Positions 1 to 31,156 of a stretch of DNA of 37,377 nucleotides are shown here, one piece after another. The position numbers and the translations under genes are program-made. This DNA is from Enterococcus phage vB_CECAV_04. Position 1 is the stretch's first letter, and the number at the start of each line of letters is the position of its first letter. The stretch lies in sequence record PV173148.1. The stretch is one strand, 5' to 3'. The notes under the pieces are model-generated. The model had not been told where the DNA came from. It made no database searches and saw nothing but the letters and a program-made list of their open reading frames with translations.

Positions 1-119
1 TCCTATGTCGCTCAAGGGTTTTAACGATTTAGTGGACAGAACAGAACTATTTTCCAATCGCTTTCTAAGAAGTATAAAATAAAAAAAAATTTTTCTTTTT
101 ATTCAGCATAAGCTAATAA

Positions 120-282
120 GCAAAATATTTTGTCCTTTTGTCCATAGGACGTTTTTTTTCTTTTTAAAAAGAAAGAAAAAAGACTAAGAAATAAGGCTTT
201 TGGCTCAAAAATTTTCATGGACAAAATGCAAAAAATTTTTGTCCGTATTTTGTCCATAGCCCTGAATTTTGTCCAAAATGCA
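120..282. repeat. Iteron/operator array. TTTTGTCC direct repeats at 128-135, 136-143, 237-244, 248-255 and 267-274. Inverted copy GGACAAAA at 219-226 and half-site GGAC at 147-150, forming dyads GTCCataGGAC and GGACAAAA-N10-TTTTGTCC.
   Basis: Read directly from the sequence. The same heptamer family recurs at 22005-22300 and at the window end (37344-37366). Confidence 0.7.
151..181. promoter_or_regulatory. A/T-only palindrome TTTTTTTTCTTTTTAAAAAGAAAGAAAAAAG. A homologous copy lies at 22088-22117.
   Basis: Dyad symmetry is visible in the sequence. It is conserved between the two control regions. Confidence 0.55.
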
Positions 283-331
283 ACCGCTGAAATTAGGAAA
301 AATGAGAAACCGAAAAAATTTTAAAAACCTA

Positions 332-360
332 TTGACTTTGTGGTAATTGGGTAGTATTAT
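332..360 (+). promoter_or_regulatory. Sigma-A type promoter TTGACT-N17-TATTAT, preceded by an A-tract and CTA (family motif AAAAACCTATTGACTTT).
   Basis: Consensus hexamers with 17-nt spacing. It is one member of the repeated promoter family. Confidence 0.6.
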
Positions 361-400
361 CGAAGTATAAAGACAATACCTTGAAAGGAAGTTAGAAACA

Positions 401-1216
401 ATGACAGAAACAAAAACTAAAAAGAAGAAAGGCAGACCGAACACAGAAACATGTCAACCTTTGACAAAACCACTATCTGACGAAGGACTAGACCTTGTAG
501 ATTATGCAAACCGCCCCGTGAATAGTTGTCGCATTGTAGGCGAGCCTTACATTTATCGAAGCCCGAACGTAATGGGTTTGCTAAACAAAGAAAGAGAATT
601 TGCTAGTGGATACCTGACTATATGTTTGAACGAAGGTAAGAAATATCGTGGATACGAACTCGAACGTACACCCGAATATGACAGATATTTTGATATGCAA
701 CCGATAGTGTTTCTTGATGAGAATAACTTGAACTTTTCAAGAACTATCGAGCAAGTCGATTCAAACACGGGGAACATTCTCCCTATAAAGTACACCATAG
801 GCGAGCGAAGGCATATTCCTTGGCACGAACGCTACACCCCCGAACAGCTAAAAGTTATCATGGAAACAGGTTCAGATGAAGTCGCCTATACCAGTGATTT
901 TGTATCAGTAAAAGAACCGACTGAACGAGACACAGCCTTGCGACCTATTCAAAGAGAAGCCGATATCAAGCTAGGCGACTTTGTTTTATTGTCGTATGGT
1001 AAAATTGCCACCTATGGAACGTTTACAAGCGTTTTAAAGCGTTCGAATATGACAAGTTGGGAATTAAGCGAAAATGTCTTAGAAACGAAATTAGGCACGA
1101 ATAACAGCAATGTAAGAGTTTACCACTTATACAACGAAGAAGAATATAACCGATTTATGAAAGACTTACGACAAATACGCAAGTTAAGAGAACGAAAAAT
1201 ATTTAAAGGAGAATAA
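401..1216 (+). CDS. Hypothetical protein (271 aa), the first gene downstream of control region 1. Its N-terminus is lysine-rich with a KKKKGRP (AT-hook-like) motif, so it may bind DNA or act as a regulator.
   Basis: Long ORF with an AAAGGAAG SD about 9 nt upstream of the ATG. I recognise no catalytic motif. Confidence 0.6.
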   Translation: MTETKTKKKKGRPNTETCQPLTKPLSDEGLDLVDYANRPVNSCRIVGEPYIYRSPNVMGLLNKEREFASGYLTICLNEGKKYRGYELERTPEYDRYFDMQPIVFLDENNLNFSRTIEQVDSNTGNILPIKYTIGERRHIPWHERYTPEQLKVIMETGSDEVAYTSDFVSVKEPTERDTALRPIQREADIKLGDFVLLSYGKIATYGTFTSVLKRSNMTSWELSENVLETKLGTNNSNVRVYHLYNEEEYNRFMKDLRQIRKLRERKIFKGE

Positions 1217-6103: not shown

Positions 6104-6712
6104 ATGAATGAACAAGAAACATTGAATTTAGCTGAACAAGCCGTACAAAATGCAACAACGCAACCCGTTGAGCAAGAAACGCAACCCGTTGAAAGTGAAG
6201 TTACAACCAACGACAAACCAACGGAAAAAACATTTACACAGCAAGAAGTTGATGACATTGTAAAGTCACGAATTGAGCGAGAAATTAAAAAGTTAACAGC
6301 TAAAGCGCAAGAACCGAAAAAGCTAACTGAGATTAATGAAATTGAAACGTTGAAAAGTGAATTACAAGAAACACAAAAGGCGTTACAAGAATTGACAACT
6401 CAACATATCAAGACTGAATTGCGAGCAAAAGCAAGTGACATTTTAAATTCAAACGGTATCAAGCCGAATGATAAAATGCTTGATATTTTAGTGGCAGATA
6501 ATGCAGAAACAACTCATGACAATATCAAGGCTTTTACTGATTTATTAAAAACACAAGCCGTTGACATTGTAAAAGTGCAGATGAAGGGAGCAACCCCCGT
6601 AAGCACAACGGCTAACGTAACTAAAACGGTTACAAAAGCTGAAATTATGGCAATTAAAGACGTAAACGAACGCCAAAAAATGATTGCTGAAAACTTACAC
6701 TTATTCAAATAA
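6104..6712 (+). CDS. Scaffolding protein (about 202 aa), acidic with high helix propensity.
   Basis: Position directly upstream of the major capsid gene. Composition is rich in Q/E/K/T. SD AAGGGGGA. Confidence 0.65.
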   Translation: MNEQETLNLAEQAVQNATTQPVEQETQPVESEVTTNDKPTEKTFTQQEVDDIVKSRIEREIKKLTAKAQEPKKLTEINEIETLKSELQETQKALQELTTQHIKTELRAKASDILNSNGIKPNDKMLDILVADNAETTHDNIKAFTDLLKTQAVDIVKVQMKGATPVSTTANVTKTVTKAEIMAIKDVNERQKMIAENLHLFK

Positions 6713-13200: not shown

Positions 13201-13209
13201 AAAATACTT

Positions 13210-13242
13210 TCAACGGGTTGAGATAGTTTTTCAACCCGTTGA
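13210..13242 (+). promoter_or_regulatory. Intercistronic stem-loop TCAACGGGTTG-N11-CAACCCGTTGA (11-bp perfect stem) between TMP and Dit, immediately upstream of the Dit SD.
   Basis: Seen in the sequence. No T-tract follows, so I do not class it as a terminator. Confidence 0.55.
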
Positions 13243-14984: not shown

Positions 14985-17900
14985 ATGGCTCAAACATGGA
15001 CTATCTCAGATAAAAACTATGTAATGCTAGCACAATTTACAAATGAAGATAGTGATTTTATTTCTAATGACGAGCATTTCATTTCAGTCGATACGCCTTC
15101 CAGTTACTACCAATTTGACTGCTTGATTAACCACGAACTCGCAAAACACATTGCGGTTGGTAATCATGTTATTTTGAGAGATAAAGAAGACTATATACAC
15201 GACTTTACTATTAGAAAAATTACAACAGATATAAACAACGTTCGTATGACTGTTTACGTTGAAAACGGTGGCATGGACTTAAATAACGAAAGCGCACAAC
15301 CTTTTTCAGCGCCTAGTGAACAAAAAACGCTAGAATGGTATCTCACGCAACCGGGGCAACCATTGTATGATAGCCCGATTAAACTAGGGTTAAATGAGTT
15401 ATCCAATTTAAAACGTGTTATTTCAAATGATAGCACGGAAACAAAGTTGCTACAGCGTTTAATAACAACGGTTAACGCCTTTGATGGTGGCGAGTACCGA
15501 CTTCACGCTAAGTTAGCGAACAATAATACAACGTTGCCAGTTTTGAATTTACAGCTTGATATCGTTAAAAAATTGGGTTCAGATATTTCACAAACGTTCT
15601 TAATTGACGATTACAACTTGAAAGAACTGACAAATGAAACAAGTATTATCGATTTGATAACAGCTGTTTTTCCACGTGGTAAAGAGTTGGAAAATGGGAC
15701 AGTTGTTGATATATCAGACATCGTTTATGATGATGGAACATACTATACCACTAAAGGCAGTCAATATATTAAGAACCGAAAAGCGCATAGTGAATGGTCG
15801 TATAGTCGCTTTAGTAATGATGAACGTTGGGGCTACATTTTGGGTAACTTCGAATACGATACCGAAAGCCCACAAGAATTATTTAATCGTGCTTTAACGT
15901 ACTTGAAACAACATGATTCGCCAACCGTTGCATTTAGTGCAAGTGGTAGAGATATGAACGCTAAATTAGGCGATACAATTATGATTGCTACTCATAAAAC
16001 GCCAGACCCGATTTATTTGAGAGCAAGAGTGTTACAAATGAAAATCTCCTACGTTGACAACGATAAAACGGAGTACATTTTGGGCAACTTTGCTATACAA
16101 CCAAGCATGGTTTCTCAAGAGCTATTAAACCTTAGAAATCAGATTCAAGATAACAAAGTAGGTTATGTTTGGTTGCGCTACGCTGACGACCGAGAAGGTA
16201 ACGGTATAAGCGAAAACCCCGAAGGGAAAAGCTATTTAGGTATCGCTTACAATATGCCATACCCCGAACCATCAAACAACCCTAGCGATTATAATTGGTC
16301 GCTGATTAAAGGAACAAACGGTTCAAATGGCGCCGATGGTGTAGGGGTGCAAACTTCCAATGTTCAATATGCTTTGGGCGATAGTGGAACAACAGCGCCG
16401 ACAACGGGTTGGACAACGAACATACCAACTTTACAAGATAATAAATATCTTTGGACAAGAACAATTATCTATTACACGAACGGAACAAATAGCGTTTCTT
16501 ATAGTGTTTCTAAAAAAGGCGATAAAGGCGAACAGGGTATTCAAGGGACTAAAGGCGCGGACGGGCGAAGCCTTTATACTTGGTTGAAATACGCCGATGA
16601 TGTAAACGGAAATGGTATGAGTGAAACGCCTGACGGTAAAAAGTACATTGGACTTGCATATAATAAAACTGTATCAACAGAAAGTAGCAACCCTAGTGAT
16701 TATACATGGTCGCTGATTCAAGGCGAAAACGGGGTAAAAGGGGAAGACGGAAAAACCTACTATACATGGGTAAAATATGCCGATACGTCAACGGGGGCGG
16801 GTATGAGTGACAACCCTACGGACAAGAAATATATCGGACTTGCTTATAATAAGACAACCCCGACTGAAAGTACAAATCCTAGCGATTATCAATGGGCTTT
16901 GATTAAAGGTGATAAAGGCGAACAAGGGGAAACAGGAAACGGTGTATCATCAACCGTTGTCAATTACGGTATCTCGACGAGTGGAACTGTTCAGCCTACG
17001 AGTTGGGGAACAAGTATTCCTAGTGTACCGAACGGGCAATTTCTTTGGACACGAACCGTAATGAATTACACGAACGGAACAAGTACAACATTTTACAGCG
17101 TGGCTAAAATGGGCGAAACGGGTGCAAAAGGTACAATGGGAATTGCTTACTTGCAACCGACAGCGCCAACGGGGGACATTGAAACGGGGTCTACTTGGTT
17201 TAAAACTGTTTCCACAACTGACAAGCGTATCACAAGCATTTATCATTATTTGTCGGGTTCTTGGGTACAGAACCAATTCACACAAGACGCTATTAATGTA
17301 AAAAGTTTGAGTGCTTTGAGTGCCACGCTAGGGAATGTTACCGCGGGTACTATCACTGGTTCGAGCTTTACTACAACGTTCGACAGACCGTACACGGGTA
17401 CCACAAACCGAGTTGGTTCGCTTGCGATAAACGATGGTAAAATACGTATTGATTACAAAGACCGTAACACGTCAACAGGGGAAGAAACTGCGACTAATTC
17501 TTACATGGAATACAGCGAAACGGGAATTGATTTTGCTGAAAATGACGGAACTGCAACAGGCAAACGGCTAGAATTGAATAGCAATAGAATTGCTTTAGGC
17601 GCTAGTAACGGTTCTTTTTATGCAGACCCTAAAAAAATGACGTTATCGGGCGATGGTTATTTTGAGTCGCGACCAAGATATTTTCTAGGTTCGAGCGGAG
17701 ATACGAACTATCAGAAAATGTCTTGGACAGTTGACGGGTTCGAGTTGCGACCCGTTGATATCTACGGCAACCCTAGAAACGGAAACACGGGTGTTGAAAT
17801 AACTGGGACTATGTCGTATATTGACTTTAAAACACCATACAATGGTGCACAAGACTACGATATACGATTCATCGAAGATAGTAGCAAAATATTTACTATT

Positions 17901-21281: not shown

Positions 21282-21373
21282 GGCTTTAAAATCGTTTATA
21301 AGGCGTTTTGTTAGCGTTGAGTATAATTAGCCTAGCTAATTGTCAAAACGCCTTAGAACGCAAAATAAGAGCC
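21282..21373 (+). repeat. Structured element R1-A. Inverted-repeat arms TAAGGCGTTTT (21299-21309) and AAAACGCCTTA (21345-21355) flank a 35-nt loop containing TGaGTATAAT. A conserved tail CTTAGAACGCAAAATAAGAGCC follows. It is homologous to 37078-37167.
   Basis: About 75% identity to the second copy. 11-bp perfect IR. Confidence 0.65.
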
Positions 21374-21853: not shown

Positions 21854-21860
21854 CACAAAC

Positions 21861-21889
21861 TTGACAAATGGAAGTGATTAGGGTATACT
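21861..21889 (+). promoter_or_regulatory. Promoter TTGACA-N17-TATACT immediately after the holin, reading into a non-coding region.
   Basis: Consensus -35 with 17-nt spacing. Confidence 0.55.
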
Positions 21890-21941
21890 ATTATCAAGGT
21901 TACTTTTTCTTTTTCTGTTTTGTTTCTTTTCTTTCTGTGAA

Positions 21942-21980
21942 TACCGTTGAGCGATTGCTTGACGGTATTTTTTGTTTTTC
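21942..21980 (+). terminator. Hairpin ATACCGT-N14-ACGGTAT followed by TTTTTTGTTTTT. It could terminate a short CU-rich transcript started at 21861-21889.
   Basis: 7-bp stem and a long T-tract. Confidence 0.4.
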
Positions 21981-22004
21981 GGGGTTGGTTTGTTTTCAGG
22001 GTTT

Positions 22005-22305
22005 GGACAAAATTAAGCTGTTAATGGACAAAATTAGGACAAAAAATGTAAGCGTTTTTGTCCATGACTTTCAGAGCCAAGAAGCCTTATTTCATGGTCT
22101 TTTTTCTTTCTTTTTAAAAGAAAAAGGACAAAGGACAAAAGATATAAGCAATTAGCATATACTGAACAAAAAGAAAAAAAATTTTTGTTTTACACTTGCT
22201 AGAAAGCGACTGAAAAATATTTTTGTTCCGTCCCTGAAATCACGCAACCCCTTGAACCACAACGGTTTGAGCATGGGACAGAATCACTCTATTTTGTTCC
22301 AAAGC
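22005..22305. repeat. Second iteron/operator array. GGACAAAA at 22005-22012, 22027-22034, 22037-22046, 22116-22122 and 22123-22130. TTTTTGTCC at 22055-22063, forming the dyad GGACAAAAAA-N8-TTTTTGTCC. Variants TTTTGTTCC at 22221-22229 and 22293-22301, GGGACAGAA at 22276-22284. A/T palindrome at 22088-22117.
   Basis: Same motif family as 120-282. It also shares CCCTGAA and GGACAGAA strings with region 1. Confidence 0.7.
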
Positions 22306-22356
22306 TTGAAATTTTGATAAAATTTTCGGTTTTGGCAACTTTTTTGTAAGCAACCC

Positions 22357-22385
22357 TTGTATAGTTTTTGCCTGTATGGTATAAT
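22357..22385 (+). promoter_or_regulatory. Promoter TTGTAT-N17-TATAAT (extended -10 TGgTATAAT), the first early promoter.
   Basis: Hexamers and spacing. Confidence 0.6.
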
Positions 22386-22416
22386 GGAATTATCAAACGA
22401 AAAGGAGAAACAAAGC

Positions 22417-22923
22417 ATGATAATTGAAATTGACTTTAAAGAACTAGCTAAAAGACAAGGGGAAGTTTTGAACGTACACCCCTATGAAATTTTTTATGAA
22501 CATAAGAAATTCTTAGATAGTTTAGTTAGGACTGTTTTGGTTGAAAGCGAAGAAATGTATAACTTTACCGAAGAAGCAAAAGCAACGTTTGAAGAAGCAC
22601 ACGAAATATTAATCGGTATTATTAGTGATTTGAACACCAAGACAAATAAACGCCTTGAAAACGAAGTATTTAAGATGTGGGTACCTAAATATAGAGAAAT
22701 CGCTGATATGCTACTAATTACGGGACTAGATGGTATCAGCAAGGCTTGTATTTTAGCCAATGAAAATTGGTTTGAAGCAATTGATACAGACAAGGAATTT
22801 GAAGAATATTACCTTGATAAAACCGAACTGGAAGAAATTCCATTTATGGAATACGTTGAAACTTTAGTATTATTAGTCGTATTGCTTGAAAAAGGTATTG
22901 AAAAATGTAATGCTAGAAATTAA
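22417..22923 (+). CDS. Highly acidic early protein (about 168 aa). Candidate host-takeover or DNA-mimic protein.
   Basis: ATG after an AAAAGGAGAAA SD. Very high Glu/Asp content. No recognisable motifs. Confidence 0.6.
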   Translation: MIIEIDFKELAKRQGEVLNVHPYEIFYEHKKFLDSLVRTVLVESEEMYNFTEEAKATFEEAHEILIGIISDLNTKTNKRLENEVFKMWVPKYREIADMLLITGLDGISKACILANENWFEAIDTDKEFEEYYLDKTELEEIPFMEYVETLVLLVVLLEKGIEKCNARN

Positions 22924-22956
22924 TTTGAGTACAACGCTGAAAAAATTAAAAATCTA

Positions 22957-22985
22957 TTGACTTTGAAATTCAATTGAGATATACT
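22957..22985 (+). promoter_or_regulatory. Promoter TTGACT-N17-TATACT (family AATCTATTGACTTT).
   Basis: Hexamers and spacing. Confidence 0.55.
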
Positions 22986-23004
22986 TAAAACAAGCTAAGG
23001 TAAA

Positions 23005-23048
23005 CCTTGACAAATAAAACAAGTCAAGGTCTAGCCTTGACAAATAAA
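23005..23048 (+). promoter_or_regulatory. Operator-like site. CCTTGACAAATAAA is directly repeated (23005-23018, 23035-23048), with dyad CCTTGAC-N11-GTCAAGG (23005-23029), in the leader of the next gene.
   Basis: Seen in the sequence. Confidence 0.5.
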
Positions 23049-23066
23049 CAGAAAGAAGGAAACAAA

Positions 23067-23633
23067 ATGACAACTAAAGCACAAGAATGGAAATCAATTG
23101 CTACAATCAAAGGAATGGTAACGGCTCAACTAACTTACAGCTTTCGAGACATATCATTCGCCCTTAAAGATTCACCGATTAACGGAACTGATTTAGTTGA
23201 CGAAATCATTCAATCAATGCTCGATAAAATCGAAGTCATTGATAACATTACTAAAATCGCAAAAGAGAAGCGCAAAGAAGAACTAGCAAACGCTATTCAA
23301 GGGGTATTATCAGCTGTTGGTTATGGTTTACTAATTATCGACTTTGAACGCGGTAAGATGGCTGAAAACGTGACTGAAAGTGCGTTTCATGTATTCATTG
23401 AAGGTTATAAGGTAGCACGAAAAGCGATTTTAACGTATACAGACTTTGAAAGCGTACTCGAATACCTAGACCTCTATGGCGCATACTTGTTTAACTTCGA
23501 TATTTTCTATGAAGATATGATTGAAACCGTTGAAGATATGATTGAAACCGTTGAAGAAAACGACAACGTAATTGAAACATTAGAAAATTTGAAAGCCGAG
23601 TTTGAAAAGCTAGGGGTAAAATTTGACGAATAA
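23067..23633 (+). CDS. Hypothetical early protein (about 188 aa) with an acidic C-terminus. It contains an in-frame 21-nt perfect duplication (23511-23531 and 23532-23552, EDMIETV x2).
   Basis: ATG after GAAGGAAA. Confidence 0.6.
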   Translation: MTTKAQEWKSIATIKGMVTAQLTYSFRDISFALKDSPINGTDLVDEIIQSMLDKIEVIDNITKIAKEKRKEELANAIQGVLSAVGYGLLIIDFERGKMAENVTESAFHVFIEGYKVARKAILTYTDFESVLEYLDLYGAYLFNFDIFYEDMIETVEDMIETVEENDNVIETLENLKAEFEKLGVKFDE

Positions 23634-23888
23634 ATTAAAGTCTTAATGAAAAGCTAGGGCGAAACCTAGCTTTTCATTTACGCTGAAATTTATACAATTT
23701 TGTTTAAATATTCATTCAAAATGAATAAAATAATTTATCCGAAATATAATTTTTTTTTTTATTAAAGTCTTAATGAAAAGCTAGGGCGAAACCTAGCTTT
23801 TCATTTACGCTGAAATTTATACAATTTTGTTTAAATATTCATTCAAAATGAATAAAATAATTTATCCGAAATATAATTTTTTTTTTTT
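23634..23888 (+). repeat. Perfect tandem duplication of a 127-bp unit (23634-23760 and 23761-23888). The only difference is the length of the terminal T-run. Each unit carries a terminator hairpin AAAAGCTAGG-GCGAAA-CCTAGCTTTT (23649-23680 and 23776-23807) and a dyad TATTCATT-CAAA-ATGAATA.
   Basis: Seen in the sequence. Confidence 0.85.
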
Positions 23889-23898
23889 CAAAAAACTA

Positions 23899-23926
23899 TT
23901 GACTTTTCAATTATCCTTGATATAAT
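23899..23926 (+). promoter_or_regulatory. Promoter TTGACT-N16-TATAAT (extended -10 TGaTATAAT). Family motif AAAAACTATTGACTTTT.
   Basis: Hexamers and spacing. Confidence 0.6.
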
Positions 23927-23959
23927 GAAACCATATCAAACAGAAAGAAGGAATAAAAC

Positions 23960-24247
23960 ATGATGGACTTAATTATTGTAGCAATGGTAATCATTCAAGG
24001 ATTATCACTTTTTTTCACTTTTTACACGCTTGTTAATATCGACAAAAAGAACCGAGAAATCAAACGATTGAGAAATCAAGTGAAAATGTATGAGAATTAC
24101 GCATACGGGTTAGAAAAAGAACTAGTAACACTTGACAGCACTAAGTCTGAATTGGCTAGTAAGTTATCAGTTACCGAATATATGCTAGAAGAACAAGCCA
24201 AAATGCTTACTGAGCCACAAACAAAGAAAAAAGGAGTTAAAAAATGA
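23960..24247 (+). CDS. Hypothetical protein (95 aa) with an N-terminal TM helix followed by a coiled coil.
   Basis: ATG after GAAGGAATAAAAC. Hydrophobic segment LIIVAMVIIQGLSLFFTFYTLV. Confidence 0.6.
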   Translation: MMDLIIVAMVIIQGLSLFFTFYTLVNIDKKNREIKRLRNQVKMYENYAYGLEKELVTLDSTKSELASKLSVTEYMLEEQAKMLTEPQTKKKGVKK

Positions 24248-24420
24248 ACGGATTTTTATATATTTTGAACATTATTCTTGATATTGTATCGAATATATTT
24301 TTTGCACTGTATATCTTTATCGGTGCTAGTGTGATTACAACAATGGGGACAGCTATTGTGTTCACAGTGTGCTTTGTACTTATCCAATTGATACAGGGGT
24401 ACCGGCGCTATGTTAATTGA
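24244..24420 (+). CDS. Small hydrophobic membrane protein (58 aa, two predicted TM helices).
   Basis: ATG in an ATGA overlap with the upstream stop. SD AAAGGAGTTAAAAA. Not in the ORF track because it is shorter than 60 aa. Confidence 0.5.
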   Translation: MNGFLYILNIILDIVSNIFFALYIFIGASVITTMGTAIVFTVCFVLIQLIQGYRRYVN

Positions 24421-24498
24421 GTTTTACATGATTTTAGTGGTGGGAACCAAGCTACTATCAGAATTAAATATTATATTGTACGAAAAAGGAGTTAAAAA

Positions 24499-24663
24499 AT
24501 GATTATTGCAATTTTACTATTCGCTTTAATAGCGTTTTTATCATTGGATTTAATTGTAGCAGGTTTACAATTTGTTTTTATCGTTATCGGAGCGCCGTTC
24601 GTTATTATTTATCAACTATTGAAACTACTTTTTAGCAAAGGAAAGAAAGCCGATGAAAGCTAG
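24499..24663 (+). CDS. Small hydrophobic membrane protein (54 aa, two predicted TM helices).
   Basis: SD and spacer identical to the preceding small gene (AAAGGAGTTAAAAAATG). The stop overlaps the next gene's start. Confidence 0.5.
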   Translation: MIIAILLFALIAFLSLDLIVAGLQFVFIVIGAPFVIIYQLLKLLFSKGKKADES

Positions 24664-25090
24664 ATATGAAGATATACGAGAATTATTAAACGATTATCCT
24701 TACGCTAGTGGTTGCCTTGATGAAATCGACATCGACGACTTGCGAACAGGGGATACATTGGCATTTACTGATGAAGATGTAGACGAAGGAAGAACCGAAA
24801 TCCTTTTCAAAATACAGGACTTTGGAATTAAACGCTTGGGACGTATAAATTATATTGTCATCAACGGGTATTGGTGCTACTACAAACTAACCAAGCTCGA
24901 CAAGTTAAACGGCTTGAAAACATACGAAATAAAGAAGGGTTGGAACTTTCTTGAAGGTACTGCTAGGTACGCTTACAGCTTTGAAGCAAAAGTATTTGAA
25001 AACGAAGCGCTTTACGTTGATGAAATAGAGAAAGACGATAATGATAATAATTTTATCGAAAATATGTTCAATGAGTTGATGAAACCATGA
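24653..25090 (+). CDS. Acidic hypothetical protein (145 aa).
   Basis: ATG with an AAGGAAAGAAAG SD. Asp/Glu-rich. Confidence 0.6.
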   Translation: MKARYEDIRELLNDYPYASGCLDEIDIDDLRTGDTLAFTDEDVDEGRTEILFKIQDFGIKRLGRINYIVINGYWCYYKLTKLDKLNGLKTYEIKKGWNFLEGTARYAYSFEAKVFENEALYVDEIEKDDNDNNFIENMFNELMKP

Positions 25091-25302
25091 ATGTTTACGT
25101 TATCGCCAAAATATCTGAAAATGGCAGAGTTTATTATCATTCAGGGGGCAACGCTTTTAACAGTAAGGTTGTTACCCGATTATACAACGATTTAAGAACG
25201 GCTAAGATACAGCTTGATAAAGTTAGACAAGGTTTGGAAAAACCTGAAAGCGTGGTACTAGTGGGTTATCGTGCTGAAAATGGCAAAGTGTTACCATTTT
25301 AG
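25087..25302 (+). CDS. Hypothetical protein (71 aa), translationally coupled through an ATGA overlap.
   Basis: ORF-track support only. Confidence 0.5.
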   Translation: MNVYVIAKISENGRVYYHSGGNAFNSKVVTRLYNDLRTAKIQLDKVRQGLEKPESVVLVGYRAENGKVLPF

Positions 25303-25347
25303 TTTAACAATTGAATATTTTAATGCTAACCTAATAAATAGGTCAAT

Positions 25348-25400
25348 CCCTTGTCTGTACTTGATACATAGCTATGTGCTAACGACAAGGGTTCTTTTTA
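25348..25400 (+). terminator. Terminator-like hairpin CCCTTGTC...GACAAGGG with a long loop that contains the palindrome CATAGCTATG, followed by TTCTTTTT.
   Basis: 8-bp stem. T-tract. Confidence 0.45.
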
Positions 25401-25413
25401 ACACAGGGGGCAA

Positions 25414-25665
25414 ATGATGAAAGAAATAGTATTATACACCAAAGATAATTGCCAAGCTTGCAGATTGATGAAAGCGCAACTTGACAAGCTGAACGTAAAT
25501 TATAAAGTTGAAAATATCCTTGAAAATGAAGAACAATTAGAATATTTTCGTTCAATTGGTATTTTACAATTACCGATTTTAACAATTGATAAAACCGTTG
25601 AAGCCTTTGGTATGCGAGTTGATAAAGCCAAAGAAGCGCTGAAAAATCACGGAATTATTGAATAA
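25414..25665 (+). CDS. nrdH: Glutaredoxin-like protein of the NrdH-redoxin type (83 aa) with a CxxC active site (CQAC).
   Basis: Size about 80 aa. N-terminal CQAC in a thioredoxin-fold context (VLYTKDNCQAC...). It is flanked by terminators and has its own SD. Confidence 0.65.
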   Translation: MMKEIVLYTKDNCQACRLMKAQLDKLNVNYKVENILENEEQLEYFRSIGILQLPILTIDKTVEAFGMRVDKAKEALKNHGIIE

Positions 25666-25670
25666 TGCTG

Positions 25671-25704
25671 AACCCGTTGCAGATGGTAACGGGTTTATTT
25701 TCTT
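25671..25704 (+). terminator. Terminator AACCCGTT-GCAGATGGT-AACGGGTT followed by TATTTTCTT.
   Basis: 8-bp perfect stem and a T-tract. Confidence 0.65.
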
Positions 25705-25769
25705 ATAACGAGTGCAAAAAGTTATTGTAGATACAAGAAAATATTTTAAAATTTTTTGCAAAAAAACTA

Positions 25770-25798
25770 TTGCTTTTAACTTGCGACCATGCTATTAT
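25770..25798 (+). promoter_or_regulatory. Promoter TTGCTT-N17-TATTAT. Family motif AAAAAACTATTGCTTTT.
   Basis: Hexamers and spacing. Confidence 0.5.
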
Positions 25799-25851
25799 AA
25801 GAATGTAGTTGATGACTACTAAAATAATTCTAAGAAAGAAGGAAAATAAAA

Positions 25852-26703
25852 TTGACTAAGGTATATAACGGGAACAATTGGAATATCGTAGAAATAGAAA
25901 CAACTAGAGAACTAGAAAACTTTCTAAGCGCCCCTATCTTAAAGGGGCGAGATAATGCGAGCGAAACTGGTAGTAAGTCCTTTACAGGGACAACTAGCTT
26001 TGAACAAGCAGACAATTTGAGAAGAAAAGGCGACAAGAAAAGTCTAGCAATGCTGAATGAGTATAAAATTAAGTTTGATAAATACATTCAGTATAATAAT
26101 GGCTGCAAAATTAAACAACGGAATGACATACACGGGTTCGTACCAATTGTACCGAACGCTATTATAGGGCTTCCTTTGTCAATGATTAATCAGACAAGGG
26201 AAGCTAAGAAAGTAAAGGGCATTGATATATTTTTCAACGTATCAATAAGGTGTGCAACTGGAACAGACGACATAGCCCGAAAAGGTGCTATCATGTTATC
26301 ATTGATAGACGCACTTGAAAGAAAAGGTTTTCGAGTGAATCTAAAAGTGGGCAGTGTTTGCATGAAAGGGAATACGGTTCACGGGGTTATAACCACTATG
26401 AAACGGTATAATGAACCATTGAACATTAGAAAACTAGCTTACTACCTTGTAAACCCTAGTTGTTTGAGAAGAACGTTTTTCAGATTAAAAGAAACTATAT
26501 CCGAACTTACAGACGTAACCAATGACGGTTATGGTACTAACAATAAATTTGACAAACAACGAAAACGATTGAAAGCTATTTACGGCGAACAACTAAGAAT
26601 AGTAGATAGCAGTATTATGGAAAACACAGATATTTCAGACAATGAACTGTTTGAAAAAATGTGTCAAGTGCTAGGGGTTGAAAGTACCACGATTTTAAGT
26701 TAG
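25852..26703 (+). CDS. Hypothetical protein (283 aa). TTG start after a GAAGGAAAATAAAA SD.
   Basis: Long ORF. I recognise no motif. Confidence 0.55.
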   Translation: MTKVYNGNNWNIVEIETTRELENFLSAPILKGRDNASETGSKSFTGTTSFEQADNLRRKGDKKSLAMLNEYKIKFDKYIQYNNGCKIKQRNDIHGFVPIVPNAIIGLPLSMINQTREAKKVKGIDIFFNVSIRCATGTDDIARKGAIMLSLIDALERKGFRVNLKVGSVCMKGNTVHGVITTMKRYNEPLNIRKLAYYLVNPSCLRRTFFRLKETISELTDVTNDGYGTNNKFDKQRKRLKAIYGEQLRIVDSSIMENTDISDNELFEKMCQVLGVESTTILS

Positions 26704-26708
26704 ACTAT

Positions 26709-26740
26709 CAAACGGTTGGGCGATTGCTTGACCGTTTTTA
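26709..26740 (+). terminator. Terminator-like hairpin AAACGGT-N14-ACCGTTT followed by TTTTTA.
   Basis: 7-bp stem. T-tract. Confidence 0.45.
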
Positions 26741-26812
26741 GTTTGCTTGGTTTTCCTATTTTAACCAGTTGAAATTTTTCTCAACTCAGTTGAAATTTTT
26801 TGTAAAAACTAT

Positions 26813-26840
26813 TGATTTTTAGTTTTAACCATGATATTAT
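26813..26840 (+). promoter_or_regulatory. Promoter TTGATT-N16-TATTAT (extended -10 TGaTATTAT). Family motif AAAAACTATTGATTTTT.
   Basis: Hexamers and spacing. Confidence 0.55.
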
Positions 26841-26843
26841 ATA

Positions 26844-26866
26844 TTTGTGGTTGAGATAACCACAAA
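26844..26866 (+). promoter_or_regulatory. Perfect dyad TTTGTGGTT-GAGAT-AACCACAAA between the -10 and the SD of the ATPase gene. It is either an operator or a 5'-UTR hairpin.
   Basis: 9-bp perfect inverted repeat seen in the sequence. Confidence 0.55.
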
Positions 26867-26891
26867 GAAACAAGAAAGAAGGAAAACAAAC

Positions 26892-28301
26892 ATGACTGAT
26901 AAAGAAAAAGAACTAGCTAGACAATTGAATGTTGAAATGTTAACAACACTAGGTTTCAACAAGAAGTACGGGTTATACTTTGATAGCCTAGAAAAGAAAA
27001 ATAAGATGTACGTTGGATATACAGGCTTAAATGCTAAAGGCGAATATTTGAAATTGCATGAATATCCAAGTCTTGAATTTATCGCCTGTACTCAAGACGG
27101 TAATTCTAAGCCTTTTAACGAGCAACTAAAGAATCGTTTGTGGCAATACGTTGACAACTTGATTGAAAGCACAGACTATGGACACAGATTTATTTCAACG
27201 CAACAAGAACCACAATATCCAATGGTACAAACAGAAAAACAAGAACAACAAGAAAAGAAAGTGGGACAAACAGAAATGACAAATGAAATCAAAGAATTAC
27301 AGCAATCTATCCTTGAAATGCAAAAATCAATGCTTGAAGGTTTCAAGGTAGTAACCGAGAAAAACCCTTATGAAAAAGCAATTGTTGACGCTATTATCGA
27401 CAAAGGAAAATCTATTTCAGTTGATGAACTCAAAGAAGATATTCTTAAGATGGTAAATGAGTTTATCAATAGCGAATACGGTAATCTACCAACAACAATT
27501 GAAATAAAGAAGGGAAGTGAAAGAAAGCAAGTAAAAGGGAACTTTCATAAAGACTTTGAAAAAATTCTCAAAGTTGTTGACGCTAATGTTCCTGTAATGT
27601 TAGTAGGTCGCGCCGGTTCAGGTAAGAACCACACACTTGAGCAAGTCGCAGAAGCGCTTGACCTTGATTTTTACTTTAGCAACGCCGTAACTCAAGAATA
27701 TACACTCAAGGGTTTCATAGACGCAAACGGACACTTCCATGAAACACAATTCTATAAAGCTTTCTCTCAAGGCGGAATGTTCTTTCTTGATGAAATGGAC
27801 GCAAGTATTCCCGAAGCGCTTATTGTATTGAACAGCGCGATTGCAAACGGCTATTTTGATTTTCCAATCGGGCGAGTTAGAAAACATGAACGCTTTAGAG
27901 TTGTTTCAGCAAGTAACACATGGGGAACGGGCGCGAATGCAATATATATCGGCCGCAACCAACTTGACGGGGCAACGCTTGACCGTTTTGTTCAAATAGA
28001 ATTTGACTATGATACCGAGTTAGAACGTGGCTTTACAAGCGATACAGACTTGTACGAATTTACAATTGACTTGAGAAAGGCTATCGACAAAACACAAACA
28101 AGGGCGATTGTATCCATGCGAGCATTGCTAAACGCTGACAAGTTAAACGGGACACTTCCAATTGATGAAATTATTAAATCTGTTTATATTAAGGGGATGA
28201 ATAAAGCTGACTTAGATATTATACTTGATGAAATGAGAACTGACGACAAGAACAAGTATACAGCCGAGTTAAAAAAGATTGTTAAAAACATGGAAGATTA
28301 A
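26892..28301 (+). CDS. AAA+ ATPase of the AAA_5/MoxR-like type (about 469 aa). Walker A GRAGSGKN and Walker B FFLDEMD lie in the C-terminal half. The about 240-aa N-terminal extension has no recognised motifs.
   Basis: P-loop and hhhhDE motifs with the correct spacing. ATG after GAAGGAAAACAAAC. The ORF-track GTG start at 26847 sits inside the upstream dyad. Confidence 0.7.
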   Translation: MTDKEKELARQLNVEMLTTLGFNKKYGLYFDSLEKKNKMYVGYTGLNAKGEYLKLHEYPSLEFIACTQDGNSKPFNEQLKNRLWQYVDNLIESTDYGHRFISTQQEPQYPMVQTEKQEQQEKKVGQTEMTNEIKELQQSILEMQKSMLEGFKVVTEKNPYEKAIVDAIIDKGKSISVDELKEDILKMVNEFINSEYGNLPTTIEIKKGSERKQVKGNFHKDFEKILKVVDANVPVMLVGRAGSGKNHTLEQVAEALDLDFYFSNAVTQEYTLKGFIDANGHFHETQFYKAFSQGGMFFLDEMDASIPEALIVLNSAIANGYFDFPIGRVRKHERFRVVSASNTWGTGANAIYIGRNQLDGATLDRFVQIEFDYDTELERGFTSDTDLYEFTIDLRKAIDKTQTRAIVSMRALLNADKLNGTLPIDEIIKSVYIKGMNKADLDIILDEMRTDDKNKYTAELKKIVKNMED

Positions 28302-28351
28302 TCAGGGGGCTTGATAGCCCCTTTTATAGCATGATTGAAAGGAGTAACCGA

Positions 28352-29494
28352 ATGAATACCTTTAGAGAACACGTTGAAAAACGAACAAAGGAAAGACAAC
28401 TAGCAATTAACAATGACAATTACAGCATTAGCCCTCGTTACGAACGCCCCTTGACAAAAGAAACGTATGAACAACTCGAGAACTTGAAAACAGTTGCGAT
28501 TGATAAAGGGCGAGCGATTGCTGAAGATTTTTATATTCGCTACTTTGACCCGGATAGGCGAGCAATAGAAATGTGTTTCATGGTCGATGATGAAAGTGAT
28601 GAAGAACTTGAATATTTATTGGAATGTTTAGGCTTTGATACTGAATTAAAAGAATTATTGGAAACACTTTACAACATTATTTACAAGGAAGAAACGGTAT
28701 TTGAAGTCATTGTAACACCTTTTGTTTACGGTACGAACAATCGCGAGTTCGGTGGTATATTGGTCGATATAGAAAACTCAAGTGGTTCGATTATCGATAT
28801 TGTATGTTATGATACGGTATCTGGTTTTCAACAAATGTTTATGGGTACTGATTTTACAAGTGAATTTTTTCAAATACCCTATGTTAGATATATCCTTAAT
28901 GCTTTTTTATTTGAAGCGTTGACAGTGCCGATAATAAAATATTGGTATCAATGCGAAAAAGATTATCATTTATCCTTAACAACGGGCTTTGGTGGCGAAC
29001 CGAAACGATTATTGAAACACGATAGCTACATTGACGATATTGCCGAATGGCTAGACAACTACCATAAAGGAGAGTTCACACTAACTAAAAAACTTGGAAG
29101 TAGGGTTGTTGACGGCGAATGTGCCAAGTTACTCGTTGAGTTGAATAATAGCAAAGTCAAATATTGTATTTTTTACAACAGGAACAAAGCCCTTGCGAAT
29201 CTTGTTTACGATAACAGACGCTATGACCAGATTACTTTTTCAGCGTTTAATGAATCAGATAAAAAAGAAGTTGTCAAGATACTATATGCTAGACTGATAA
29301 CTGATACAATTGTCTTTAATTTTGGGGTATACAACAAACAATATCCACTATACGGTATTGATTGGAAGCAGTTTTTGACAACGGTTGGTATACCAAGCAA
29401 TATAATAGATTTATCAGACGATAACTTCATGTTCGAAATTGAACAAAACAACCGATTATTAATGCAGATATTACAAGATTATCAAAACAATTAA
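28352..29494 (+). CDS. Hypothetical protein (about 380 aa), adjacent to the ATPase and probably its partner. A possible degenerate MIDAS-like DIENSSGS segment is noted, but I have little confidence in it.
   Basis: ATG after a GAAAGGAGTAACCGA SD. No firm domain recognised. Confidence 0.55.
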   Translation: MNTFREHVEKRTKERQLAINNDNYSISPRYERPLTKETYEQLENLKTVAIDKGRAIAEDFYIRYFDPDRRAIEMCFMVDDESDEELEYLLECLGFDTELKELLETLYNIIYKEETVFEVIVTPFVYGTNNREFGGILVDIENSSGSIIDIVCYDTVSGFQQMFMGTDFTSEFFQIPYVRYILNAFLFEALTVPIIKYWYQCEKDYHLSLTTGFGGEPKRLLKHDSYIDDIAEWLDNYHKGEFTLTKKLGSRVVDGECAKLLVELNNSKVKYCIFYNRNKALANLVYDNRRYDQITFSAFNESDKKEVVKILYARLITDTIVFNFGVYNKQYPLYGIDWKQFLTTVGIPSNIIDLSDDNFMFEIEQNNRLLMQILQDYQNN

Positions 29495-29517
29495 ACAAAA
29501 TAATTCTAAAATAACCA

Positions 29518-29549
29518 TTGACTTTGCTTTAATCAACGGGTATGATAAT
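29518..29549 (+). promoter_or_regulatory. Promoter TTGACT-N17-TATGAT(AAT).
   Basis: Hexamers and spacing. Confidence 0.5.
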
Positions 29550-29577
29550 GTTATCAACAAGAAAGGAATGAAATCAA

Positions 29578-30078
29578 ATGAAAGATTTGACAAAACAAGA
29601 ACATTACACGAATAATGGAATTGAACCAATCGAAATCATGCGAAAAAACTTCTCTCATGACGAATTTATAGGTTTTTGCAAAGGTAACGTTTTAAAATAC
29701 CTTTTGCGCTACAAAGACAAGAACGGCTTGGAAGATTTAGAAAAAGCGAAAATTTATCTAAATTGGTTGATTGATGAACTTGTAGCAGAAGATTTGAACA
29801 AGACCTTTGATGAACGCTTTGAAGAAATCGAACGAGAAGAACGAGAGAAATGCTCTTGTGGTTGTCATTGTGAAGATTGCAAAGACTATGACGGTTGCGA
29901 AAGTTTTGGCGTACAATTGTCATTGTTTGATAATGAACCAATGGAAGAACCTTCAATTGTTTCAACCAATGATTTTAAAGAAGCAGACCTAACTAATGAA
30001 AAGTGTGAAGAACCAAGTAACTTTGAAAAATACTTAGCTTGGAAACAAACGCTTGACGAGTGGAGAAAAGGCGAGTAA
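29578..30078 (+). CDS. DUF3310-like phage protein (166 aa) with a Cys-rich segment CSCGCHCEDCKDYDGCE and an acidic C-terminus.
   Basis: The N-terminal signature (HYTNNGIEPIE...GNVLKYLLRYKDKNGLEDLEKAKIYL) resembles the DUF3310 family common in phage replication modules. Confidence 0.55.
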   Translation: MKDLTKQEHYTNNGIEPIEIMRKNFSHDEFIGFCKGNVLKYLLRYKDKNGLEDLEKAKIYLNWLIDELVAEDLNKTFDERFEEIEREEREKCSCGCHCEDCKDYDGCESFGVQLSLFDNEPMEEPSIVSTNDFKEADLTNEKCEEPSNFEKYLAWKQTLDEWRKGE

Positions 30079-30116
30079 TTATTTTTAACAGAAAGGAAAG
30101 AAACGGGTGCCGATAA

Positions 30117-30452
30117 ATGAAAATAGGAAACAGAAAAATTATCCATAATCAACCACTTGATGAAGAATCAATGGAAAGATATGAAAAATTTTGCTTGCAT
30201 TTATTTGACAAACTATCGAGACAACAATTCATCAAACACATAAAAATGAAACGCTCAAAACAGAGTGAAGCTTGCTATTATCGAGTATATGGCTATCGTG
30301 GGGGAAGATATGAATTTAGTATTAGAAATCATGATAGCTTTTCGGATTGTAGACAAGAGAATATTTACCTAGATGATTTTGATAGCTTGCGAGAATTGGA
30401 ACATTGGGCTATTAAGGTAGCAAGAAATAGAATTTATAAACAAGAATATTAA
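30117..30452 (+). CDS. Hypothetical basic protein (111 aa).
   Basis: ORF with a GGGTG SD 7 nt upstream. The in-frame stop immediately upstream fixes the start. Confidence 0.5.
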   Translation: MKIGNRKIIHNQPLDEESMERYEKFCLHLFDKLSRQQFIKHIKMKRSKQSEACYYRVYGYRGGRYEFSIRNHDSFSDCRQENIYLDDFDSLRELEHWAIKVARNRIYKQEY

Positions 30453-30501
30453 ACAAACAGAAAAGAAAAGCGACCTTATCAATTGATAAGGGGGCTATAT
30501 T

Positions 30502-31131
30502 TTGAAATATGAAATCATTGCAACAGGAAGTAAGGGAAACGCCGTTTTAATCAATGATATATTGGTTGATTGTGGTATCCCTTTCAAACGCTTAAAACCG
30601 TATTTATACGAAGTAAACACACTTTTAATCACTCACGAACACAGTGACCATGTGAAAGCAACAACTTTGAGAGCAATTAAAAAGTATTTTCCTAACATTC
30701 AAGTGGTAGCTAATTACATGGTTAAACAGCTATTCCCTAATTACGTTGATTTGACCGCCAATGGGGGTGTACCTTTGTTCACACAGTCGGGAATTATAAC
30801 CCCGTTTGATTGTGTGCATGATGTTGATTGCTTGGGGTATACATGGATAGTTGACGGGAAAAAGGTTGTTTATGCGACTGACACAAGTACAATGGACAAT
30901 TGCCCCGTTGATATAGCTATTGACTATTGTTTCTTGGAAGCTAACTATGATGAAATCAAGGTACAGCAGATAGTGCAGAATACAGATATGTTGAAAAAAT
31001 ACGGTTACGACATTAGAAAAGGTACTGTGAGGCACTTTTCAAAACAGCAATGTAAATCATTTTTCTACAGAAACCGTGCCGACGAAAACAGCCAATTGAT
31101 ACAGTTACACCAAAGCGCAAGATTTTATTAA
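30502..31131 (+). CDS. Metallo-beta-lactamase-fold hydrolase (209 aa) carrying the HxHxDH motif (HEHSDH).
   Basis: Motif THEHSDH plus downstream conserved His/Asp residues. TTG start after AAGGGGG. Confidence 0.65.
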   Translation: MKYEIIATGSKGNAVLINDILVDCGIPFKRLKPYLYEVNTLLITHEHSDHVKATTLRAIKKYFPNIQVVANYMVKQLFPNYVDLTANGGVPLFTQSGIITPFDCVHDVDCLGYTWIVDGKKVVYATDTSTMDNCPVDIAIDYCFLEANYDEIKVQQIVQNTDMLKKYGYDIRKGTVRHFSKQQCKSFFYRNRADENSQLIQLHQSARFY

Positions 31132-31156
31132 TACAGTTAGAAAGGAAAGATAACAA

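Follow-up and report, generated by a model that had tools for sequence, protein, structure and literature searches.

The window, i.e. the whole stretch of 37,377 nt that was analyzed, is a complete, circularly permuted siphovirus genome, all genes of which are carried by the plus strand. Two non-coding spans interrupt it (36979-400, 799 nt, and 21854-22416, 563 nt). The only open reading frames inside these spans are 205-444 (minus strand) and 21868-22155, and in the relatives no gene is called at the corresponding place, in agreement with the sequence-only reading, which saw no plausible ORF there. Scans of the whole window with Rfam (gathering threshold) and for tRNAs gave zero matches. The spans harbor region 1 (R1; 37341-37377 plus 1-292) and region 2 (R2; 21995-22303), which lie 15 kb apart, one at either end of the early (replication) gene block. 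R1 starts 363 nt downstream of the primase-helicase gene and wraps around the window end, as had been supposed, the junction from 37377 to 1 being contiguous in independent contigs (L001/L002). The relevant features are the following:

32808-34757, plus strand: gene for a family-B-type DNA polymerase, the presumed replicase after initiation (PHROG 1252, E 1e-116)
34987-36978, plus strand: gene for the primase-helicase, which is proposed to be the initiator and to bind the iterons
37341-37377, plus strand: first part of R1, aligning with the reverse complement of 22303-22267, kept in 12 of 12 aligned copies and continuing at position 1
37345-37353: iteron-like GGAACAAAA, in the first part of R1
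37365-37369: TGTCC, in the first part of R1
beginning in 37341-37377, then 1-22: conserved GC-richer box of R1
1-292, plus strand: main part of R1
34-46: degenerate tandem iterons GGACAGAACAGAA of R1
62-127, no strand: AT-rich tract I, candidate DNA-unwinding element, 83% A+T, between oppositely oriented iteron-like repeats
128-143, plus strand: two abutting direct iterons TTTTGTCC TTTTGTCC of R1
144-218: AT-rich spacer II of R1, 76% A+T
157-174, no strand: 18-nt palindrome TTTCTTTTTAAAAAGAAA, within AT-rich spacer II
219-226, minus strand: single inverted iteron of R1 (GGACAAAA on the plus strand)
237-274, plus strand: three direct iterons TTTTGTCC of R1 (237-244, 248-255 and 267-274)
260-266: CCCTGAA, in R1
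332-360, plus strand: sigma-70-type promoter TTGACT-17-TATTAT, 10/12 match, just outside R1
21995-22303, minus strand: R2, a paralogue of R1 in inverted orientation, arranged in the same way
22005-22012, 22026-22033 and 22037-22044: three copies of GGACAAAA on the plus strand, in R2
22056-22063: TTTTGTCC on the plus strand, in R2
22107-22124: near-palindrome of R2
22126-22140: iteron pair of R2
between the iteron pair and the degenerate iterons of R2: AT-rich tract of about 70 nt
22221-22235: degenerate iterons of R2
after the degenerate iterons on the plus strand: GC-richer box of R2
22276-22283: GGACAGAA, in R2
22292-22300: TTTTGTTCC, in R2
22357-22385, plus strand: extended -10 promoter (TTGTAT-17-TGgTATAAT), read by eye, just outside R2

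The earlier observation of two iteron regions is real but under-described. Where shared pieces had been noted, R1 and the reverse complement of R2 can be aligned over around 320 nt, so that a single ~320-bp element is present twice, at full length and in opposite orientations, with an end-to-end identity of around 68% and the same order of iterons (two direct, an AT-rich spacer, one inverted, three direct). The window contains 16 occurrences of the heptamer TTTGTCC; in shuffled sequence the number is 7.5 +/- 2.6, and none of 100 shuffles reached 16. Twelve of the 16 genomic sites fall within the two regions, six at 129-274 and six at 22005-22139. In an unbiased 7-mer clustering scan of the whole genome GGACAAA/TTTGTCC came out joint top; the other joint-top 7-mer sits in a trivial exact tandem duplication. 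The two dyads described before were recovered at 219-244 and 22037-22063, where chance would predict none. The description of a pure A/T palindrome in each region holds in part: the palindrome is present in R1 and exact there only, but the R2 variant has two mismatches, and C and G are included. The least stable 40-bp window of tract I, which starts at position 62, falls into the bottom 0.02% of the genome for stability (lowest 0.7% for 100 bp), although that of R2 ranks within the lowest 2-3% only and the AT-rich tracts are not the genome's least stable DNA.

When 12 kb of the window were compared by megablast with 50,697 phage records, no match was obtained, and relatives were therefore collected through their proteins. 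A metagenome scan with the pattern TTTTGTCCNNATTTTGTCCAT yielded, among the 83 loci listed, none homologous to R1 or R2. Among orthologous copies the identity amounts to 87-90% for R1 and 82-90% for R2, with around 85-87% for neighboring coding DNA. Over nine distinct copies 34 of the 41 iteron columns are invariant, compared to 142 of the 275 other columns (Fisher p = 1.5e-4), and both copies are evidently under purifying selection. The abutting iteron pair was found in 12 of 12 aligned copies, with a spacing that is 1 nt shorter in the region-2 copies, and the three direct iterons are invariant among the aligned copies, except for the third in one copy.

Nine of the ten relatives that encode this primase carry a non-coding block of iterons, AT-rich DNA and iterons, either a short way behind the gene or where two modules meet. 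The tenth is phage C, whose contig includes no more of the paired element than its outer arms; the repeat there, TGAAACA, was read by eye. The iterons of the relatives are phage-specific (GTTACC, GTTACA, ATTACAA, GGTTACA, GATACAA, TGAACA and GGTAAC). At least seven different iterons occur in what is a small sample, and the primase-helicase consistently diverges most in its C-terminal domain. The Listeria phages P35 and P40 share their host genus and differ in their iterons, and since this is so the iteron specificity is, as far as sequence comparison goes, phage-encoded; a reading of the repeats as host DnaA boxes was rejected on the same grounds.

The sequence-only reading had advised a check for conservation, and the second copy of the element is indeed kept in P35 (16023-16252 and 35376-35605), in P40 and in metagenomic relatives. 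Six contigs of close metagenomic relatives show the same arrangement: four are nearly identical to one another, come from different samples and measure 22.4-39.8 kb (37.8-39.8 kb in three cases), and the other two cover a fifth relative. In the more distant phage C the contig ends are inverted repeats, which implies that a second copy is present, and phage E has two copies in direct orientation. The elements of P35 and P40 are not adjacent to the primase gene. A distant inverted pair was sought and found to be absent in Lactococcus phage 1358 and in two temperate phages of Staphylococcus, so not every relative has the pair. Temperate relatives have a single copy, as does phage F over the 21.6 kb available, which makes clear that the second copy is not needed by the replication module as such. 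A partial literature search yielded no paper on paired origin repeats in P35-like phages, and an earlier description may exist.

The primase-helicase contains a PriCT_1 primase-associated domain and an SF3 helicase (DUF5906; TIGR01613 over residues 315-604), followed by a predicted C-terminal winged helix (residues ~566-637). As the homologs are 641-645 aa long, translation probably begins some 17-22 codons into the listed ORF. The match to TIGR01613 ('phage/plasmid primase, P4 family') scores 121.3 bits where the curated cutoff is 108.7, and the alignment with the alpha protein of P4 covers 314 residues (BLASTP E 1e-8). The AlphaFold model (AF2; pLDDT 88.6) places helices at 584-597 and 605-616 and a beta-hairpin at 618-637, and thereby predicts an SF3 helicase with a C-terminal winged helix as in the SaPI-type initiators. 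The best solved structural match of this model is PriRep5 of SaPI5 (7OLA; E 2e-18, target-normalised TM-score 0.70-0.75), at a sequence identity of 16-18%. The C-terminal domain is the part that varies most: compared to the protein of phage C, which has different iterons, the core is 83% and the C-terminal domain 53% identical, a link between domain and iteron that is based on about ten sequences. The polymerase shows a weak match to Pfam DNA_pol_B and is encoded beside the primase in all relatives.

The product of ORF 401-1216 had been put forward as a candidate DNA-binding regulator, an assignment for which no support was found. The protein is an orphan without a Pfam, PHROG or NCBIfam match and has only 10 close homologs among 5.8 billion proteins. 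The G and the R of its GRP motif vary among homologs of 79-95% identity, leaving only the P invariant, and its AF2 model (pLDDT 48.6) is unusable. The primase-helicase itself is the more likely binder of the iterons.

We consider it likely, on the strength of these comparisons, that R1 and R2 represent two copies of a P4/SaPI-type, iteron-based origin element that bracket the early module of a virulent siphovirus. The regions had been proposed to be either candidate replication origins or a multi-operator switch, and it is the former half of that proposal that is upheld, by the P4 ori layout, the P4-family primase-helicase and the blocks in the relatives, but not the latter. From the anatomy and paralogy of the elements, their conservation, the change of iterons between phages and the family and fold of the protein we infer binding, melting and initiation along the following lines. 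The early genes would be expressed by the host RNA polymerase, after which the primase-helicase (a P4-alpha-like SF3 protein with an N-terminal primase domain) may recognize the TTTTGTCC iterons via its C-terminal winged helix, assemble on both sides of the AT-rich tract, melt this tract and load itself as the replicative helicase. It would then prime the synthesis that the phage B-family polymerase extends. Both copies may fire, or they may cooperate as a bipartite pair of the ori/crr type that is bridged by the initiator. An inflection of the GC skew, which had been suggested as a check, was seen at neither region: the cumulative skew rises monotonically, as is expected when all genes are on one strand, and so lends the origin reading no support. 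What speaks against this reading, in addition, is the moderate rank of the R2 tract in instability, the fact that temperate relatives manage with one copy and the distance of the elements from the primase gene in P35 and P40.

It is possible, though on balance doubtful, that the two copies constitute one initiator-bridged unit that loops out the 15-kb early module, whereby the complexes at the borders would insulate early from late transcription or trigger a switch from theta to concatemer replication. Such a unit would explain why a copy at the border is kept in several genera, why the copies change iteron together and why their orientation can be inverted or direct, and, if true, it would couple the licensing of replication to the timing of the late genes.

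A variant that would refine rather than exclude the two-copy origin, and that we regard as rather unlikely, holds that one copy fires and that the other is an initiator-bound auxiliary site, either a cis partner like crr of P4 or a fork barrier like oriR of SPP1. In the latter version the first fork of the theta mode would be stalled, causing a switch to concatemer (sigma) replication for headful packaging. P4 requires ori plus crr, and its crr is located 3' of alpha, like R1. The directly oriented copies of phage E fit with a partner site that works independently of orientation. The portal of the phage is of the SPP1 type and its large terminase of the T4 type, which suggests headful packaging of concatemers, and for SPP1 it has been proposed that gp38 at oriR stalls the fork and triggers the switch (PMC6316719; PMC3485210). 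Nevertheless, both copies retain the full ori-type iteron layout and both AT-rich tracts, where crr of P4 has a different layout, and the sequence offers no distinction between an active and a passive copy.

It seems improbable that a phage transcription regulator uses the repeats as operators, in a multi-operator switch that would act on the neighboring promoters and set the timing of the early and late transcription units. Promoters are located just downstream of both regions, and the dyads, GGACAAAA-N10-TTTTGTCC, resemble the binding sites of dimers. The promoter at 332 drives ORF 401-1216 and the downstream genes, and that at 22357 the first early gene (ATG at 22417). Strong promoters had been proposed beside each region. 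The former matches the sigma-70 type at 10 of 12 positions; the latter has a weak -35 that matches at 3 of 6 positions only, for which reason it was missed by the consensus scan. Similarly, the promoter at 332 had been taken to launch the late operon, but it is not evidently 'late' because its consensus family (D4) recurs at 22936, 31962 and 34931, including sites inside the early region. No exact TTTGTCC iteron overlaps the -35 or -10 of either promoter: the end of the nearest one lies 58 nt ahead of the -35 at 332, and the iteron-like site closest to the promoter at 22357, TTTTGTTC (22292-22299), also ends 58 nt upstream. Moreover, the copies are inverted, and equivalent sites therefore differ between the two promoters in both distance and side. 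Among the 30 proteins scanned we found no repressor-like gene and, apart from the small terminase, no HTH regulator, so that the combination of operators over a core promoter and an adjacent repressor gene was not encountered. In relatives the block sits directly after the primase gene, which in the temperate ones means inside the early region and away from the genetic switch. In P35, the element does contain a consensus promoter (TTGAAC-17-TATAAT) whose -35 is overlapped by the third direct iteron, and binding of the initiator could there also affect transcription. This embedded promoter is absent here and was rejected as a conserved part of the element.

We attach very little probability to the idea that the inverted repeats are recombination substrates that flip the late versus the early module, comparable to the inversion of segments in the 2-micron plasmid or herpesviruses, by which bidirectional theta replication could be turned into double rolling-circle replication. 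It is true that this phage, P35, P40 and phage C all have a module enclosed by an inverted pair. In addition, the copies of P35 are 93% identical over 149 nt and those of phage C share an identical core of 30 nt, identities that hint at occasional gene conversion. The copies here, though, are around 68% identical only, which is poor for homologous recombination, and those of phage E are direct. Both marks of an invertible segment were absent from the proteins and contigs examined: the 30 proteins scanned included no site-specific recombinase, and all contigs that span either copy (L001, L008, L146-L149 and L051-L054) show a single isomer. Finally, it is very unlikely that the regions serve in packaging, as pac sites or as sites to which the small terminase binds, even if the R1-equivalent of P35 and P40 lies directly upstream of the small-terminase gene, which is found 1.4 kb downstream of R1 here, as a second inverted copy beside the early genes would make no sense for packaging and in seven relatives the block comes right after the primase gene, with the terminase, where it is on the locus, 2-6 kb further downstream.

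The origin type is ordinary and the conserved two-copy layout is mildly new. P35 and P40 are used in biocontrol and diagnostics, and the two-copy origin would provide a concrete origin assignment for these and other poorly studied virulent siphoviruses of Gram-positive bacteria, with the predicted C-terminal domain of the primase-helicase as the likely initiator part. The iteron and the specificity domain of the initiator appear to be swapped as a pair. The iteron layout of the P4 ori would reach from a satellite phage of E. coli to autonomous phages of Firmicutes that have their own B-family polymerase. Cloned copies of the origin could serve as decoys that confer phage resistance by titrating the initiator, or as amplifiable vectors that depend on the phage. 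The question raised is why the far end of the early module retains another copy, though temperate relatives with the same replication genes have one.

Three known systems invite comparison. The first is SPP1, a precedent for two origin regions and likewise a virulent siphovirus of a Gram-positive host with two homologous regions of repeats and an AT-rich unwinding element, oriL and oriR, which are around 13 kb apart on the circular map and share a single initiator that binds them (PMC6316719). That initiator is unrelated in type, however: SPP1 employs gp38 with a DnaB-type helicase and loader and the host polymerases; oriL lies within the initiator gene, and homology was neither seen nor expected. 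Pfam gave no match to a DnaB-family helicase or loader among 30 proteins that included nearly all early-region ORFs (PHROGs and NCBIfam were applied to subsets), and the replication genes found, encoding a B-family polymerase and a P4-family primase-helicase, do not make up a set of the gp38 and DnaB type.

The second system is that of the SaPIs, whose Reps are self-loading helicases. Their C-terminal winged helix binds 6-12 iterons that surround an AT-rich center directly behind rep (PMC9371898). At least two iterons to each side of the center, in opposite directions, characterize a SaPI-type origin. Here, too, short iterons specific to the phage occur to either side of AT-rich DNA, and an element follows the pri-rep gene. 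Each copy has six exact and several degenerate iterons, and AT-rich tract I is flanked by opposite orientations, with one side degenerate (GGACAGAA); R2 is not beside the gene. The specificity of the SaPI proteins resides in the C-terminal winged helix (PMC9371898), a domain that is predicted here and in which the protein varies most. The SaPIs differ in having one ori, where there are two here, and in P35 and P40 neither element is beside the gene.

The third system is P4. It differs in several respects: crr of P4 consists of two 120-bp direct repeats with a layout unlike ori, whereas here both elements are full ori-type copies, and the spacing of the elements is 15 kb compared to around 4.5 kb. 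The N-terminal primase domain is PriCT_1-associated, and the phage, an autonomous virulent siphovirus of a low-GC Gram-positive host, has its own B-family polymerase. The alpha protein of P4 binds ori and crr through a C-terminal winged helix. The helicase and C-terminal region of alpha and of the primase-helicase belong to the same TIGR01613 family, and the iteron core of P35, TGTTCA, resembles the P4 repeat TGTTCACC. On its minus strand the P4 ori reads as two copies of TGTTCACC, 35 nt with 83% A+T, an inverted copy, 14 nt and three direct copies, which is the layout of R1 and R2: two direct iterons of around 8 nt, an AT-rich spacer, one inverted and three direct. The alpha operon is flanked by crr, immediately 3' of alpha, and ori, just as the early module is flanked here, so that in both cases a second, distant element with the same iterons exists and one of the two is located 3' of the initiator gene. 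R1 occupies the position of crr in P4 and of the ori in SaPIs, and R2 that of the P4 ori, at the 5' end of the early module.

The window comprises a complete, circularly permuted siphovirus genome of 37,377 nt, with all genes on the + strand and a 37377->1 junction that is contiguous in independent IMG/VR contigs. Two gene modules can be discerned:

~401 to 21853 (+), late genes: small terminase, T4-type large terminase, SPP1-type portal, tail genes, amidase endolysin and holin
22417 to 36978 (+), early genes: DUF7192, AAA_5 ATPase, DUF3310, metallo-beta-lactamase-fold protein, DUF1351, B-family DNA polymerase and primase-helicase

Among GenBank phages no close relative was found at the DNA level. 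By protein, the nearest named relatives were the Listeria phages P35 and P40 (primase 36-37% identical) and some temperate Staphylococcus phages.

The two modules are separated by two non-coding regions, R1 and R2, for which the sequence-only reading had proposed an enrichment of TTTGTCC/GGACAAA iterons, two dyads, a shared A/T palindrome and other common pieces. The enrichment was borne out: TTTGTCC was counted 16 times versus an expected 7.5 +/- 2.6, with 12 of the 16 inside the two regions, and in an unbiased 7-mer clustering scan GGACAAA/TTTGTCC ranked joint first genome-wide and formed exactly two clusters. Both dyads are present where chance predicts none, and the 18-nt palindrome is exact in R1 but carries two mismatches in R2. 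The shared motifs are thus real and non-random, but the relationship had been understated, as over their full length the two regions are inverted copies of a single element: aligned with the reverse complement of R2 (22303-21995), R1 (37341-37377 plus 1-292) shows ~68% identity. In R1 orientation, each copy consists of the following parts:

part 1: iteron-like GGAACAAAA and TGTCC
part 2: a conserved, GC-richer box
part 3: tandem, degenerate GGACAGAACAGAA
part 4: AT-rich tract I (~65 nt, 83% A+T)
part 5: two abutting copies of TTTTGTCC
part 6: AT-rich spacer II, with the palindrome within
part 7: a single inverted iteron
part 8: three direct iterons, at spacings of 11 and 19-21 nt

In both R1 and R2, the part 8 side is turned towards the late genes. 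In stability, the AT tracts fall within the lowest 0.02-3% of genome windows, without being the extreme. No strong promoter was found within the element; the promoter at 332-360 and the extended -10 promoter at 22357-22385 both lie immediately beyond it.

Several other promoters and repeats were observed. Near-consensus promoters at 311-343, 22936-22968, 31962-31994 and 34931-34963, and also at 23886-23926, 25762-25812 and 26804-26854, form a family whose members share an A/T tract upstream and have tATTGACTTT as the context of the -35; one member is the '332' promoter ahead of the supposed late operon, so this promoter may be active early. A 79-nt direct repeat (21286-21364 and 37090-37168, +; 77% identity), holding GAGTATAAT/GGGTATAAT followed by a small hairpin, has one copy ahead of the holin gene and one in the interval from the primase gene to R1, with a third version downstream of the primase gene of phage C, a relative sharing this primase type (contig L138, 11960-12040). 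It may represent a late promoter or a regulatory RNA common to two late transcription units. In very AT-rich, non-coding early-region DNA (23634-23887), 127 nt are exactly duplicated in tandem, with a palindrome (AAAAGCTAGG...CCTAGCTTTT) inside; no DNA of the genome is less stable. Finally, the motif (C)AACCCGTTGA(G/A) occurs in pairs at 1646-1679 and 13206-13241 (both intergenic) and at 6161-6196 (inside the scaffold-protein ORF); a related string, CCCGTTG/CAACGG, is found in the GC-richer box of the proposed origin elements of P35, P40 and phages C and D.

A short self-contained transcription unit (21861-21978, +) lies downstream of the holin stop and ahead of R2; its promoter is TTGACA-17-TATACT (21861-21889), and its intrinsic terminator (21939-21970) is followed by a T-run. 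A CU-rich stretch of its ~80-nt RNA (21903-21936) is 82% complementary to 26877-26910, barely within the 5' end of the AAA_5 ORF (26847-28301) and around an in-frame ATG that may be the true start. At 93-94%, conservation of the unit in close relatives exceeds that of the flanking DNA. P35 has a counterpart (promoter 15857-15885, terminator 15936-15960, 'tttctttcctcctt'), which shares anti-Shine-Dalgarno-like CCUCC motifs with that of P40. The unit, for which there was no Rfam match, is a candidate phage small regulatory RNA.

Both copies of the element recur in the same arrangement in four contigs of 22.4-39.8 kb (37.8-39.8 kb for three of the four) that come from different samples and whose AAA_5 protein is 91-97% identical, and in a fifth relative (two further contigs). 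Orthologous copies are 82-90% identical versus 67-75% for paralogous copies, so the duplication is older than these phages; set against the ~85-87% identity of the adjoining coding DNA, the orthologous values indicate constraint on both copies. Over 9 distinct copies, 34 of 41 iteron columns were invariant versus 142 of 275 elsewhere (p = 1.5e-4). In P35 an inverted pair occupies the equivalent sites, 3' of the holin gene and 5' of the small terminase gene, with copies 93% complementary over 149 nt and TTTGAACA as iteron; P40 has the same arrangement with the iteron GGTAAC. Since both infect Listeria and yet differ in iteron, a host protein is excluded as the specificity factor. The 16.5-kb contig of phage C (primase 69% identical) corresponds to the early module and ends in inverted repeats with 30 identical bases; all that it holds of the paired element is the outer arms, with a repeat, TGAAACA, that was read by eye. 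In phage E (primase 41% identical) two copies with 66% identity lie at the module borders in direct orientation. Phage F and the temperate relatives showed one copy each in the DNA at hand, and no second. Overall, an iteron/AT-rich block with its own iteron is present in 9 of the 10 relatives inspected, the tenth being phage C; iterons vary between phages, while the copies within a genome agree. In seven relatives the block begins no more than ~0.6 kb past the primase gene; in P35, P40 and L151, a temperate relative, its place is a module border, not directly after that gene.

P35 carries a consensus sigma-70-type promoter (TTGAAC-17-TATAAT; 16067-16095, +, and 35561-35533, -) inside the repeated element, its -35 being the third direct iteron; it reads into the early genes from the early-gene copy and antisense into the last early genes from the other, and has no conserved counterpart in the window phage. 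P40 has a second, unrelated inverted pair of tandem ~48-nt repeats (2143-2247 and 17517-17685), one arm between the genes for the large terminase and the portal, the other within the early region.

The iterons had alternatively been read as operators of a multi-operator switch. This is disfavoured, considering that no exact iteron overlaps the core promoters, that the inverted copies are placed differently with respect to them, that no repressor gene was found in 30 proteins scanned and that the block directly follows the primase gene in relatives; ORF 401-1216, put forward as a candidate regulator, is still an orphan. A role of the inverted copies as recombination substrates is likewise disfavoured: the paralogues are just 68% identical, none of 30 proteins scanned was a recombinase, all contigs spanning a copy show one isomer, and the direct pair of phage E argues against models that require inversion. 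Packaging sites would account neither for the second copy nor for the location in relatives.

A role in replication initiation is suggested by the primase-helicase, which is of the P4/SaPI type. It scores above the curated threshold of TIGR01613 ('phage/plasmid primase, P4 family'), P4 alpha aligns over its helicase region (E 1e-8), and among solved structures it matches only the SaPI5 primase-helicase in sequence. The AlphaFold model is confident (pLDDT 88.6), has SaPI5 PriRep5 as best fold match (E 2e-18; target-normalised TM-score 0.70-0.75) and ends in a predicted helix-helix-beta-hairpin winged helix. The last ~90 residues have diverged far more than the helicase core, as would be expected of a specificity domain. 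The Reps of SaPIs load themselves as helicases and, through a C-terminal winged helix, recognise 6-12 short iterons, which flank an AT-rich centre on both sides, directly downstream of rep (PMC9371898). From sequence, structure prediction and comparison we infer that the primase-helicase would bind the iterons via its C-terminal domain, melt an AT-rich tract, load itself and prime, after which the phage polymerase would extend. Both copies may fire, or one may be an auxiliary or barrier site.

Origins of this type are already known. In the literature searched, with the P35/P40 and 1358 genome papers outside that search, there appears to be no description of such an origin in this phage group, or of the conserved second copy on the far border of the early module. 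The closest match is P4, going by its annotated record. Read on the minus strand, the P4 ori has two copies of TGTTCACC, a 35-nt stretch with 83% A+T, a single inverted copy and, 14 nt further on, three direct copies; the two paralogous, conserved iteron/AT-rich elements have this layout and keep its iteron order. A second element of P4 with iterons, crr ('cis required region for replication'), lies directly 3' of the alpha gene, and ori is annotated on the opposite side of the alpha operon. In the window phage the early module is bracketed alike, with R1 in the position of crr and R2 in that of ori. A precedent for two origin regions in one phage is SPP1, in which a single initiator binds two homologous regions, one of them a proposed fork barrier (PMC6316719).
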